A DNA stretch of 64,000 nt from Eledone cirrhosa (taxonomy: Eukaryota): positions 7,998,001-8,062,000 of the forward strand of contig OZ024750.1 of NCBI GenBank assembly GCA_964016885.1, read 5' to 3'. Positions within the stretch are counted from its first letter, which is position 1. Each line of letters opens with the position of its first letter. A program made the position numbers and the translations under genes. The notes beneath the pieces are model-generated. The model was not told the DNA's origin. It was given only the letters and a program-made list of their open reading frames with translations, and made no database searches. Below are positions 4,607-63,695 of the stretch, in pieces.

Positions 4607-4878
4607 CTGTATATATTCATATATAATTAGTTTTACAGATTTCTAGGAGATTGTTTGTCTTGGATAATACGCTATGATTTGATTCTCGCATGTAATATCA
4701 AAGAAACACTCGTTAGTTTTATAATGCTCCACCTAGAGCTATAACTAGCGCTGGATCTACAAGATCACTATGCTGAGATAGTAGGAAACTAAATATTGGT
4801 AATTGACCTCATCTGTAAATGTTTGATATTTTGATTATTTAGGTTTCAGGTCATAGTCACAGGTCTTTTCACTATATA

Positions 4879-7106: not shown

Positions 7107-7204
7107 CGTATATATATATATATATATTTATTAAATATATATTATTATTATTATTAATATTATTACTATATATATATATATGTTCATATATATATATATA
7201 TTCA

Positions 7205-7340
7205 TAAGGAATTGTGGTAAGGAACCAGATGGACCATAACGCACCAGAGTACTCAATACTTAGGGTAGTAGTGTGGGAAATAGGAAAAAGTATGACCCCG
7301 ACGGCAGAGCTCAAGCCGTTTCGACAGCTATTTCTGGACT
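7205..7340 (-). mobile_element. HHR-half element family H, copy 1
   Basis: Near-identical to 63501-63640; minus strand has gtcGAAACGGC-ttgagctct-GCCGTC-gggg; inside (TA)n. Confidence 0.85.
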
Positions 7341-10300
7341 ATATATATATATATATAGAATCATTAGAACATCTGACTGATAAAATGACAAGTTAGTCAA
7401 TCATAATGGTGCCCCCCCCCCCCCTCCCCCCCACAGCCCCGGCGGACAGAATGAAGAAGATAGTTAGTGAATAGGCCGTTGAATATTATGTAGTGTATAT
7501 TAACAGTTCTATAATGAACTGGATATCAAATACCTTTTATATGTAATAACTAATGTAAATAGTTTTAGTCCGTGGAGGCATTGTCATTTCTTTCTACGCA
7601 GACATTGTGTATCTGATATATCAACATTTGTGTGTTGATTAAATATACATATATTAACACACGCTCTCACAAATCCATACATACATATATGCATGCATAC
7701 ATACATATATATATACATACAAAAAGCGTATTATCATGGTTCATTCTATGTACATTTTAATTGATCTTATATGAGAAAGTGTTTGATATACCAATAATTG
7801 GAACCACAAATCACCTTTAACTTCTTAAGTGTCCGTCATTAAAATTCCGACTATTTTTAGACAAATCTACAGCACTCAAAATCCTTTGAATATTGTTTAA
7901 AAGAATGACACGTCGCCTTTCATGCTTCGTTTGACCAATTAAAAATATCAGCTAAGTCTCAATTGAAATTCTGTCGTCAGTAATAGAAATGGATATAGTG
8001 GAAAATGTAATTACTGATACACACACACATATATGAAATAGTGTCGGCGTGAGCCTGTTTGATTTTAGGTCTTCTCGATCAGAATTGAATCCAAGCTTGC
8101 CACTTTTATTAAACTACTTATGTTCTATACATATGAAATAGATAGGAGTTGTATTATACATAACCTTACGTTAGCTATAAAATAATCTAGGCAATAACTT
8201 TTAAAACAGAGACTGTTTGGTGGCCACATATTCAGCTGAGTATTAGCGTCAAAAAGTTTACAGTAAATCTATTATTTGCTATGAATTTCTCCTTATCTCT
8301 CTTCTCTCATGCCAAGAAGTAATTGAACTCAAATTGCGAATAAAAAATAACTCCGAAAGAACAAATTCGCAAGAAGGATTCGAACATGTCTCTATGCAGC
8401 GAAAAAGTTTCACATTTTACCACTGATCCGTTAATTTGCGCACTATTCCATTATAAGCAACTATTAATAGCTCACTTCAGTTTCAAATAAAGATTAAAGA
8501 GCACTTTTAGAAAGTTTAAAGATAATATAATCATGTGGAAATTATTATATTAACATTAACGATACCATGATCCATGCATCACTTCACTGTAAACAGCAGG
8601 CCGGATTTTAAGCTAAAGCTGATGATATTAGTGAATCAATTAAAATGTATTATTTTCTTAGAATAAAGTTATATAAGCTTTATTGAATATATACTGCATG
8701 CAGTTGTCATGAAGATAGCTATATCAAAAGCTGTTATCTCATATCATAGTACTTAATTGAAATATACATAGACGGTGTTTTTGATCGTGAAGAATATAAT
8801 TCATCTTTTAATCTTTTAGAAATAAGACGGTGTAACGATTCCAACATTCACGCACGTATTTAAACGTATGTGAAGTATAATTGCTTCAAATAGCTACGTA
8901 AATTAGGTTACAGGTTTGGCTTAACATGATTGAATATGTACGAAATAAAATCGTTATAGTCTGTACAAATGGTAGCAAATTCTACCTTCAAATAAATCCA
9001 TATTTTCAAATCTATTAAATTCATATTTTCTATTATTATCCAATTTCTGGTTCGGCAGATAACATGCTTAACAATATTGTAAATACTGTGAACAGAGAGG
9101 TCATTGAGTTAGAGGAATTCGCTAAAACTCAGCCAGATGTAGTTAGAAACGAGAGAATTGATCGGCGATAGAGTGCAGTAGAAATAAAAATAAACTAGCT
9201 GAATATTTGTGTATTGTTCAAATCTTGGCACGGTCATTGTATGCGTTTATATATTAATTGTTTTCTTGTTCCGATACATAATACAGTAGCAAAGAATGAA
9301 TCGCATTCTCAACACATAGATAATACAGCATATACATAAGATGTAACGTATATATATAATGGAAAACATATTCAAAAGATTGGGTGATGTCACCCATGTC
9401 AGTTGTTAGTAGCTAATAAGAATATATCGAATATCTAGTGATAGCGGCACGTATTGGAACGGTAACACGAACAATGGGCGAAAGAACATAAAACATATCC
9501 ATAGTATTTAAAAGGGCAGTGGGGGTTGGCAAAGAAGTGTAGATTCGATTGGCACCAAGCCAGATATTTTATAGAATAAGGCTTGAGATGAATTGACTTA
9601 GCACATATTTTATCGCCGCTCGTGACAAATAAAAGTTATATAGTCATACACGCAAAGACATACATGGAAACAATGGGAATACTGTAGGGCTTTTGTCATC
9701 CGGAAGTTTCTAGGTAATATGTCGAGTGTGATTTTGCTTTTTGGTGGTCTCAGTTACTATCACTAATGTTCCAATCATCTATCAGACCTGCCAACTTCAA
9801 AGAGCCTGAATGGGGAGTACTACAAAAAGTGCCCCCAGAACAGGGAGAAATGAAGCAAAATGGGGAGATTTTACATAATGAATATTATACCCATGTTTGC
9901 AAGAGAAGACATCTCTCACCCACCCCATATTTCATTATAGCATCGACTTACAAAATATTGGTTATGTTTATCACAAGAGATATCAATATTGAAATAGCAA
10001 AGAGTGTAACTTTCTAAAACATTAACCAGGTCTCAATTCTAGGCTCGAAAGAATTTCATGTTTTTATGCTTGGCTTTCTCTATATGTACAATGTGAATTA
10101 ATTAATTTGGAGAAGTAGCAACAGTATACTTTCTAACTAGATTTCACCCTAACTCTCTCTCTCTCTCTCTCTTTCTCTCTCTTTCTCTGTATGTATATAT
10201 ATATATATATCTGTGTGCGTCTGTAGAAATGGCTTTGATCTTTCGCCAAATCAGGCATATCAAACAGGACTATAAAACGGAAATTAGATATAGAAATGCA

Positions 10301-14715: not shown

Positions 14716-15180
14716 ATATAAGTTAAAACAATGAAATAAAAAATCAAGTCATTAGAGATATACTTCACTGCTTTACGATTGTTTCTAGGTGATGATAATA
14801 AATTGTAGCTATACTCCGTTATTGATCTATGTAAGGTTAGTTACAAAATATCAGATAAAGCGAATATTTACTTACATGCATATCACCAGCTGTTTTCAAA
14901 AGCAATAATAATTTTATTCAGAATTAGTAGTATGTTAGTATCATGTCCTTATTTGGAGGTATTTGAAGAACTAACCAATCAAATTGGTTAGTTCTTCAAC
15001 TACCTCCTGGTGATATGCATGTAAGTAAATATTCTCTTTATCTGATATTTTGTAACTAACCTTACATAGATCAATAACGGAGTATAGTTATAATGTATTA
15101 TCATCACCTAGAAACGATCGTAAAGCAGTGAAGTATATCTCTAATGACTTGATTTTTTATTTCATTGTTTTAACTTATAT
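14716..15180. repeat. Long inverted repeat (~174-bp arms, 14716-14889 / 15007-15180) with inner hairpin 14955-15007; PLE-like fold-back
   Basis: Arms differ at about 5 positions and contain CTGGTGA...GAAACGATCGT; the element lies between (TA)n tracts. Confidence 0.9.
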
Positions 15181-18544: not shown

Positions 18545-18801
18545 AGGTCAAATAGCAGCCCTACTACCATCTACAAACTGACCAATGAGAATCAAGACCA
18601 TTCCTGCTGACAACATTAAATTATCCCTAACAAGCTCATATGTCCCAAGGCTCTGATACCATCAACGCTATAAACACAGAGTTGGCATATCTAAGAACTG
18701 ACTAAGTGCCTGATGAGGTCATAGCCATTCAATGGCTATCATCGAAATATATATAGCAGTAAATAAAGGATTATGAGTTCATGCAATTGACTTATGTTTT
18801 G

Positions 18802-18806
<5 letters not shown>
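18542..18806 (+). mobile_element. PLE-type pseudo-LTR with HHR at 18705-18760, embedded in (TA)n
   Basis: agtgc-CTGATGA-ggtcatagccatt-c-aatggctatcatc-GAAA-tatatata-gcagt; inverted near-identical copy at 20048-20196. Confidence 0.85.
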
Positions 18807-18880
<74 letters not shown>

Positions 18881-19916: not shown

Positions 19917-20032
19917 TATTTATTAAAATAACAGGTTAAAGTTTAAGCAAAGAATCGCTGCTTTCACCCTTAACGTTAAGGGTGAAAGCAGCGATTCTTT
20001 GCTTAAACTTTAATCTGTTATTTTAATAAATA
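19917..20032. repeat. Loopless ~116-bp palindrome centred at 19974/19975
   Basis: ...gcaaagaatcgctgctttcacccttaac|gttaagggtgaaagcagcgattctttgc...; one mismatch. Arm sequence recurs at ~55397-55425. Confidence 0.95.
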
Positions 20033-20047
20033 AATATATATATATAT

Positions 20048-20196
20048 AGTGACGAAACATAAGTCAATTGCATGAACTCATGATCCTTTATTTACTGCTA
20101 TATATATTTCGATGATAGCCATTGAATGGCTATGACCTCATCAGGCAGTTAGTCAGTTCTTAGATATGCCAGCTCTGTGTTTATGGTGTTTATGGT
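20048..20196 (-). mobile_element. Inverted copy of pseudo-LTR segment 18657-18806
   Basis: Near-exact reverse complement, flanked by (TA)n. Confidence 0.9.
20094..20149 (-). ncRNA. Complete minimal type I hammerhead ribozyme
   Basis: ACUGC-CUGAUGA-GGUCAUAGCCAUUCAAUGGCUAUCAUC-GAAA-UAUAU-AUA-GCAGU: helix I 5 bp, long helix II, both core boxes intact, AUA triplet, short AU-palindromic helix III. Confidence 0.75.
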
Positions 20197-38241: not shown

Positions 38242-38555
38242 ATGTGTGTGTGAGTGTTTGTCAGACATATATACCTTTTTGTGACGAGTAGAATAGAAAA
38301 TAGTTTCAAGTGATAGAAAAGGTATTTGCACTATTGGGTTTTCGAAACGTGCTCCTACAAATGTAGAGTCGTTATATATGAATACATATTCATGTATATT
38401 AGTGGCACTTCGGTTATTTATGTATCCTATAACACTTTATACGAAGAAAGGCTCGTATCAATTTCAACATCAATATCATTTAGATATTTTTAAACGTATT
38501 ATGAATACAAATTAGCCAGTAAGCCTCTACACGTTAGAGATGATCAGCGAATCTT

Positions 38556-38820
38556 CCAGCCGTTTCGAGCTCTGCCGTAGAGCTCGAAACGGCTTGAGCT
38601 CTGCCGTTGGGGTCGTGAGCCTTTGCCTATTACCCACTCTACTACCCAAAGTATCGAGTACTCTGGTGCGTTATTGTCCACCTGGTTCCTTACCACACTT
38701 CCTTCGTTATATATATAACAAAGAAGGTGTGGTAAAATACCACCGCTGGCTCAGTTCGGATCTAGGTGTCGAAACGGCCGAATCTCACCTGTCGGGGGTC
38801 CTGACTCTTTTCCTATATAT
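38556..38820 (+). mobile_element. Family H, compound copy (short fold-back plus second partial unit)
   Basis: agccgtttcgagctct..agagctcGAAACGGC-ttgagctct-GCCGTT-gggg...ccttaccacacttccttcgttata, then an inverted tail and a second gtcGAAACggcc unit. Confidence 0.8.
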
Positions 38821-43470: not shown

Positions 43471-43665
43471 ATAGGAAAAGAGGCAGGACCCCGACGGCTG
43501 AGCTCCGGCCGTTTCAACAGCTAGTTCGGATCTAGCTGTTGAAACGGCCGGAACTCAGCCGTCGAGGTCCTGTCTCTTTTCCTGTTACCGACTCTACTAC
43601 TCTAAGTATTGAGTACCCTGGTGCGTTATGGTCTACCTGGTTCCTTACCACACTTTCTTTGCATA
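43471..43665 (+). mobile_element. Family H copy with ~110-bp fold-back (43473-43583)
   Basis: Axis at ttcggat (43525-43531); right arm GAAACGGC-cggaactca-GCCGTC then family tail; inside (TA)n. Confidence 0.85.
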
Positions 43666-49627: not shown

Positions 49628-49875
<248 letters not shown>

Positions 49876-63500: not shown

Positions 63501-63502
<2 letters not shown>

Positions 63503-63692
63503 CAAAGGAATTGTGGTAAGGAACCAGATGGACCATAACGCACCAGAGTACTCAATACTTAGGGTAGTAGAGTGGGAAATAGGAAAAAGTAAGACCCCCG
63601 ACGGCAGAGCTCAAGCCGTTTCGACGGATATTTCTGGACAGAAATAGCCGTCGGAACGGCTTGAGCTCTGCCGTCTGGGTCATACTTTTTCC

Positions 63693-63695
<3 letters not shown>
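63501..63695 (-). mobile_element. Family H copy with ~117-bp fold-back (63579-63695)
   Basis: Axis tttctg-ga-cagaaa (63631-63644); minus strand GAAAC 63622-63618, GUC triplet 63602-63600; (TA)n both sides. Confidence 0.9.

Follow-up and report, generated by a model that had tools for sequence, protein, structure and literature searches.

Inverted leader stubs of a Penelope-like element in Eledone cirrhosa: a probable two-primer origin

We describe a family of repeats in a 64,000-nucleotide stretch of the 3.0-Gb Eledone cirrhosa genome, hereafter the window (positions 7998001–8062000). The repeats are stubs, made of pseudo-LTR (pLTR) and leader sequence, of a 3.53-kb Penelope-like element (PLE) with an intact 717-aa open reading frame (ORF). 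Across the genome such stubs are found as head-to-head insertions in (TA)n, in which a short arm is joined to an arm that carries a tail. Judged from their sequences, these short+tail insertions probably arose by two target-primed reverse transcriptions of one capped RNA, both running off its 5′ end, the products of which were then joined. Throughout the text, the G of GAAAC is numbered 0 and negative positions lie 5′ of GAAA.

Copies in the window and across the genome

The arms of the family that lie in the window are listed below.

7203..7341 (−): solo tail arm, subfamily B; start at −18/−19; (TA)n on both flanks; no inversion
38555..38707 (+): tail arm; start at −2 (G at 38586); a complex small inversion before the arm
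38718..38813 (+): sixth copy; antisense 18-nt tail-end piece (38718–38735), a short insert, then a subfamily A short arm
43474..43524 (−): short arm, subfamily A; reaches to −9; G of GAAAC at 43515
43522..43661 (+): tail arm, subfamily A; start at the inferred RNA start (−18/−19); G of GAAAC at 43541
49735..49786 (−): short arm, subfamily B; reaches to −12
49787..49873 (+): tail-only arm; start near +35; without the hammerhead part; head to head with 49735..49786
63502..63639 (−): tail-bearing arm, subfamily B; start at −17; G of GAAAC at 63622
63639..63692 (+): tail-less (short) arm; start at −14; core GGAAC (63653); TTCC end on (TA)n

All five copies that a sequence-only reading of the window had listed are present and form a single family; the sixth, at 38718–38813, had been missed. 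That reading reported no CUGAUGA, and CUGANGA is indeed absent from all five. It had also ascribed GAAA, helix III and a GUH triplet to each of them. An intact GAAAC-GGC-loop-GCC-GUH string is found at 7203–7341 (−), 38570–38707 (+), both arms of 43474–43661, 49735–49786 (−) and 63502–63639 (−), but the + arm of the 63.5-kb copy reads GGAAC. The proposed hairpin 5′ of GAAA, with the reverse complement following it, is present at 63502–63692 and 43474–43661 and not in the other three copies.

In the palindrome at 63502–63692, the tail arm reaches −17 and the short arm −14, and the two are fused head to head with an overlap of 1 nt. The tail arm (63502..63639, − strand) is made up, in order, of the helix II 3′ strand, GAAAC, helix III with a GAGCTC loop, a GUC site, the helix I 3′ strand, a tail of about 80 nt and a (TA)n end. 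In the palindrome at 43474–43661, the tail arm reaches −18/−19 and the short arm −9, with an overlap of about 3 nt. The fold axis of 38555–38707 is the GAGCTC palindrome of the helix III loop sequence, not helix II, and the short arm within 38718–38813 begins exactly at −18 (38753). No remnant of the element's ORF was found within the 64-kb window, and an Rfam search of the window returned no hammerhead. On their own, the two window palindromes fit a generic snap-back and cannot pick among mechanisms, whereas the genome-wide set described below argues against snap-back.

The family is abundant. In 80 evenly placed 10-kb stretches (800 kb) we found 28 arms and 9 pairs, which by rough extrapolation corresponds to about 100,000 arms and 30,000 palindromes genome-wide. 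Two 26-nt patterns gave 3844 and 658 exact genome matches and their reversed controls gave 0, so this is a repeat family and not a chance resemblance.

Several other repeats lie in the window. Another element, probably of another PLE family, occupies 18658–18835 (+) and 20019–20196 (−); its two copies are 93% alike, carry a canonical CTGATGA hammerhead-like motif (18710 and 20144), and face each other with their 3′ ends on (TA)n, 1183 nt apart. A long palindrome at 14716–14889 and 15007–15180, with arms 97% complementary, a 117-nt spacer containing a short hairpin, and a (TA)n end, may be another head-to-head insertion. CTGANGA...GAAA motifs at 2237, 15608, 51910 (−) and 54374 look like hammerheads of other PLE families, and a tandem array that repeats about every 20 nt spans 165–732.

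The parent element and its hammerhead-like motif

One of the 30 loci of the first search extended further 5′, and the walk reached a decayed ORF. A protein search from this ORF yielded young, intact relatives with open frames of 784 codons. These masters are tandem 3.53-kb units with a hammerhead-like motif in each pLTR (arrays at L261, L263/264 and L269), and they also occur as multi-kb inverted pairs. The tail of one unit runs on into the leader of the next. Counted from the first ATG, which lies 234 nt downstream of −18, the ORF encodes 717 aa. A short upstream reading frame is present at L261:4921–4962 (−); it begins in the tail and stops 13 codons later, before the main ATG at 4839.

The protein has RWR at 37, DKT at 117, CxCX5C at 572, CxxC at 670 and CxH at 698, together with YRDD and YIG. 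Its endonuclease (EN) region, of GIY-YIG type, is C-terminal and lies in a single ORF with the reverse transcriptase (RT). Pfam and PDB sequence searches with the 717-aa ORF returned no match; the top homolog, P0001, has a Pfam GIY-YIG match. The element displays the traits of EN+ PLEs: a single ORF with RT and GIY-YIG, tandem pLTR units, a tail at one end, and an adjacent inverted 5′-truncated copy. The copies are flanked by (TA)n, which is their target.

Hydra-clade PLEs are characterized, in the accessible text of PMC8557442, by DKT, a CxCX5C linker, CxxC, CxH, a C-terminal EN, a (TA)n target and RWK, and in a by-eye comparison the RT motifs described here agree with those of the Hydra proteins in its supplement. 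Assigned by protein motifs only, the element is likely a Hydra-clade PLE. It shares with the EN+ members of that clade, Hydra-1_Obim among them, the single ORF with RT plus a GIY-YIG-type region at the C terminus, the motif set and the (TA)n target. It differs from them, as far as the same source describes them, in the length of its unit (3.53 kb, against generally <3 kb in published Hydra-clade PLEs), in having RWR in place of RWK, and in a non-canonical hammerhead, the listed Hydra motifs including that of Hydra-1_Obim being CUGANGA (PMC8557442). Two other identities were considered. Naiad, raised by one motif, was dropped on account of the C-terminal endonuclease. Non-LTR retrozymes are defined in 10.64898/2026.07.22.740005, in the text available, by tandem monomers with a complete hammerhead each; this identity was rejected, the stubs being inverted or solo and without the 5′ half.

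Long copies contain, in order, CCCC, the core, a 10–13-bp helix II whose loop spans about 30 nt, GAAAC, a 5-bp helix III that has GAGCTC in its loop, GUC and GGGG. Full-length copies thus have helices I, II and III around the core, with GAAA and NUH, in the layout of a type I hammerhead, and the proposal that the window copies hold a 3′ half, here of a hammerhead-like motif, within a PLE pLTR is borne out. The same reading had looked to masters with a CTGANGA 5′ half upstream. Masters with a 5′ half do exist, but their core is UUGANAA. A census that allowed C or U at position 3 and A or G at position 8 gave 6623 motifs; among the first 100 listed, counted by hand, 78 are U3:A8, 2 are U3-G8, 20 are C3-A8 and none is C3:G8 (CUGANGA), the canonical pLTR hammerhead reported as a shared trait of the Hydra clade.

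Over 10 long copies, 91.8% of the cells of 22 pairs are paired, compared with 26–47% in slid controls; these sequences are related, so the figures carry no probability. Three helix II pairs are changed on both sides between subfamilies A and B, which, in 10 related long copies, is suggestive only. Minimum-free-energy folding gave the three-way form for L261 and L280 and not for the other three of five sequences, and an Rfam search of L261 and L271, loci that hold full-length copies, returned no hammerhead at E<=1.

The U3-A8 core is a published PLE variant (PMC4209133). As described in that source, the minimal hammerheads of Schistosoma Cercyon have the same U3-A8 pair, a long helix II, a palindromic loop 3 and motif pairs on opposite strands. 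Here, by contrast, loop II is far longer and holds the inferred start site, and in a 20% subfamily the pair is broken (C3-A8). That subfamily, with core CTGAGAA, has spread (for example L279:2294 (−), and 20 of the first 100 listed of the 6623 motifs), which suggests that ribozyme cleavage is dispensable, in line with what is reported in PMC11167929.

Ends, pairs and joints of the arms

Arms have two fixed 3′ ends, at about +41 (short) and +120 (tail). Their 5′ ends were scored in 94 unbiased arms, that is, arms from sequence not chosen for a joint: the window, random stretches and flanks. The 30 loci L091–L120 served as extra unbiased flank only; they hold an unrelated multi-copy LINE-like family of >3 kb. 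The 5′ end lies at −12..−22 in 71 of the 94 arms, closer in 12, at −23..−56 in 6, and at −57 or beyond in 5. Within the main cluster 36 arms end at −16..−19, and 11 of the 94 exactly at −18. The sequence-only reading had expected clustered breakpoints, and in this respect it was right. A second method, which missed three long arms, placed the start of 25 of 39 tail arms at −12..−22. It placed the start of one of these 39 at +20..+25, the predicted ribozyme cut, and ribozyme-cut RNA was rejected as the main template route. In an independent DNA run (X2), the summed contig depth drops >10-fold past −18, and likewise past the end of the tail. The stubs lack the 5′ strand of the native helix II and its loop of about 30 nt, which begin about 57 nt before GAAA. 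The stub hairpin is therefore the inversion joint and not the native helix II.

Position −18 is the A of a TTYAGTY motif inside loop II, which both subfamilies, A and B, retain although the loop around it has diverged, and which, going by the initiator consensus, we take to be initiator-like. About 30 nt upstream of −18, subfamily B carries a TATA-like word that overlaps the helix II 5′ strand; this word is absent in A. Initiator-like words have been described for PLE pLTR promoters in parts of PMC2377424 and PMC3846280. Long pairs are also found (L401, L402, L404 and L277) in which the arms end at near-equal far positions (−111/−111, −79/−79 and −317/−322). Such ends are expected if both arms run off one RNA end, and also under snap-back.

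Arms are paired by a one-tail rule. Among 145 unique head-to-head pairs, 132 are short+tail, 1 is tail+tail, 1 is short+short and 11 are unclassified, and the one-tail rule also holds in the multi-kb pairs L265/266, L273 and L275. A variable block is concordant between the two arms in 70 of 77 scored pairs, compared with 34% at random (55 of the 132 pairs were unscored), although this high concordance could instead reflect one subfamily active at a time. In L002:776 the palindrome arms come from two subfamilies, and so two RNAs are sometimes used. In L184:9369–9505 the joint is filled by a 128-nt piece of RT coding sequence from the element itself (94% to L280), a switch of template to another RNA or to a different part of the same one. 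Arm-to-arm divergence averages 3.2 non-CpG mismatches per 50 nt and within-family divergence 4.4 (108 pairs; five apparent A/B pairs, which look like classifier errors, were left out), a comparison that cannot tell snap-back apart from two primers sharing one RNA.

A further property of the joints is a surplus of G. At 1336 sites both arms reach −18 with 1–4 nt between them, and counts from this set are conditional on both arms doing so. Single-base centres make up 24 of the first 50 sites listed, and by hand count the base is G or C in 22 of these 24; the genome is 36% GC, and templated extension at such centres would give A or T. The longer centres among the same first 50 listed comprise 11 in the orientation of a copied cap, with an initial C or a final G (in 9 of them both, hence on both arms), 1 in the opposite orientation, 13 that are all A/T and 1 with an inner G. 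Among the short+tail single-base cases in 30 fetched sites, 11 carry the G on the short arm and 8 carry it on the tail arm. Where the partner does not abut, G precedes the −18 start in 27/49 cases against 12/57 at other starts (non-T bases), figures that are partly confounded by partner-derived G, by some joints being counted from both strands, and by partial selection for non-T at −19. An untemplated 5′ G has been read as a copied cap in L1 and SVA, according to the accessible text of PMC4859970.

Readings of the head-to-head stubs

In the two-primer reading, the A at −18 would be the transcription start, nested inside hammerhead loop II, and the G that precedes it would be the copied cap. 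An RNA beginning in loop II would be without the ribozyme 5′ half and would not self-cleave there. A protein, probably a dimer, would nick both strands of (TA)n; priming would take place at the tail end for one strand and at the pLTR end for the other, in most cases with the same RNA as template, and the cDNA 3′ ends would be joined bluntly, by 1–4 nt of microhomology, or with filler. Since the mRNA leader contains both priming sites, most events would yield stubs of 60 and 140 nt, and the one-tail rule would follow because a single RNA offers one start site of each kind. Long copies would need a read-through RNA with a downstream pLTR and tail. The activities invoked resemble those described for an anole PLE protein, which cleaves and extends both strands, begins reverse transcription at two internal sites that match the ends of the tail, and by prediction forms a dimer (PMC11167929, in the text available). 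A point against the two-primer reading is that few arms lie exactly at −18, and that the others need trimming or early stops.

The best-surviving alternative, which we nonetheless regard as unlikely, is generic self-priming. Here a single cDNA would run off the RNA 5′ end, fold on a few bases and copy itself, and an endonuclease would later trim one end, of either arm, at the pLTR boundary. Self-priming on an antisense template is the reading of PLE head-to-head palindromes given in PMC3846280, with the tail ascribed to endonuclease resolution in PMC8557442, as far as the accessible parts of these sources go, and the source haplotype shared by the arms in 70 of the 77 scored pairs agrees with it. 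A single-cDNA snap-back, however, needs one arm to contain the other. In 55 unbiased pairs the tail-less arm is longer at its 5′ side by at least 3 nt in 18, which breaks that rule, and it is longer by hundreds of nt in L405 and L407. The tail arm is longer in 16 pairs, and the two extents are within 2 nt in 21; these 37 pairs, to which both window palindromes belong, are also allowed by snap-back and count against the two-primer reading. Staggered trimming would weaken the containment test.

The joints themselves bear on the same question. The two arms overlap by at least 2 nt in 12 of the 55 unbiased pairs and by 1 nt in 7, and these 19 joints suit self-priming; 13 are blunt and 23 have fillers, and these 36 do not. 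A spacer of <=2 nt was scored in 20 of the 55 pairs, which should be taken as a maximum (by eye, some 10 are clear), as the scoring of 5′ extension may overshoot (the 43471 copy scored 19/19). Joints with 0–1 nt between perfectly paired arms, among them the C-N-G and CG centres at 9 of the first 50 listed of the 1336 sites, leave no room for a primed loop; self-priming at such joints would need several untemplated bases matching by chance. Finally, the ORF-RNA filler of L184 and the two-subfamily pair L002:776 need a second template.

Somewhat less likely still is that two primers were used but that the RT simply halted where the 5′ ends lie, on reaching the top of helix II or a bound protein, with the G being an ordinary untemplated addition. 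The cluster of 5′ ends does fall 4–8 nt past the 3′ strand of the 10–13-bp helix, and the ends are spread over −12..−22. The G excess, however, is specific to the −18 start, TTYAGTY has been retained in A and B in an otherwise diverging loop, and the TATA-like word lies at its distance upstream in B, though not in A; all three speak against a mere stop.

The sequence-only reading had offered the possibility that the palindrome is itself the mobile unit, and a MITE-like element or a palindromic non-autonomous master could be imagined; this is very improbable. One recurring junction in most of 30 retrieved loci seemed to favour it, but these loci came from a query that itself contained the junction, and the apparent single fixed axis was rejected as a product of that bias. 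No fixed centre is inherited: there are 47 junction types among the 55 unbiased pairs, young copies of identical sequence differ in their joints (L377, L379, L380, L384, L387 and L394), and the arms rarely share rare non-CpG variants (3/99, with 1.6 expected). The main model of the sequence-only reading, in which the native helix II hairpin serves the cDNA for snapping back and the ribozyme 5′ half is replaced as a result, is the least credible of all and is refuted for the copies examined: the axis does lie just 5′ of the helix II 3′ strand and the masters do have a real helix II with paired changes, but neither the native loop nor the native 5′ strand is present in the stubs, no more than 5 of 94 arms extend to −57, the inverted arm complements the 3′ strand exactly instead of matching the native 5′ strand, and containment is broken in 18 of 55 pairs.

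In L1 twin priming, two target-primed cDNAs are made on one RNA, giving complementary, non-overlapping segments. The two-primer reading of the PLE stubs likewise invokes two target-primed cDNAs and one RNA, and L1 full-length 5′ ends carry an untemplated G (PMC4859970, in the text available); unlike in L1, both arms here would copy the same leader from two fixed sites, with a palindrome as the result. Canonical PLE insertions have the same head-to-head inverted copy, one-end tail and tandem masters, in the accounts given in the accessible text of PMC8557442 and PMC3846280. Their tail is described there as optional, 30–40 bp long and at one end, whereas here it is about 80 nt long and is found on exactly one arm almost always; the arms, moreover, are leader-only stubs ending at one site, and their joints have a cap-like G. 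A further counterpart is Poseidon PAc of Anolis, for which the accessible text of PMC11167929 likewise reports two RT start sites 3′ of the hammerhead defining the tail, both strands cut and extended, an AT-rich target and no need for cleavage. PAc belongs to another clade, and that text draws no link between the two sites and inversion arms or the RNA cap.

Published accounts of PLEs already include inverted copies, tails on one side, a pair of RT start sites and U3-A8 cores. A literature search, mostly without subscription papers or Repbase notes, found no earlier statement of a two-primer, cap-on-both-arms reading. We see about an even chance that this genome preserves, in large numbers, the natural traces of a 'one RNA, two primers' step in PLE transposition, in which a dimer primes opposite strands at the two RT start sites of a single capped transcript and both cDNAs copy the cap and fuse.

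The origin of PLE inverted repeats and of the one-sided tail is named as an open question in PMC8557442 and PMC3846280, in the parts accessible. If the two-primer reading is true, a single step would account for the inverted repeat, for the tail on one side only and for the surplus of short copies, and the antisense self-priming model would be replaced. The promoter would then be nested in a ribozyme loop, and a whole hammerhead would be present only on read-through RNA. If transcribed, the palindromes would be self-contained double-stranded RNA and of interest for RNA editing, palindromic repeats having been tied to RNA hyper-editing (PMC5625713, accessible text). The stubs give countable predictions, namely one tail per pair, a cap G on both arms and no containment, and the young intact family in the same genome makes these predictions testable in an existing in vitro system.
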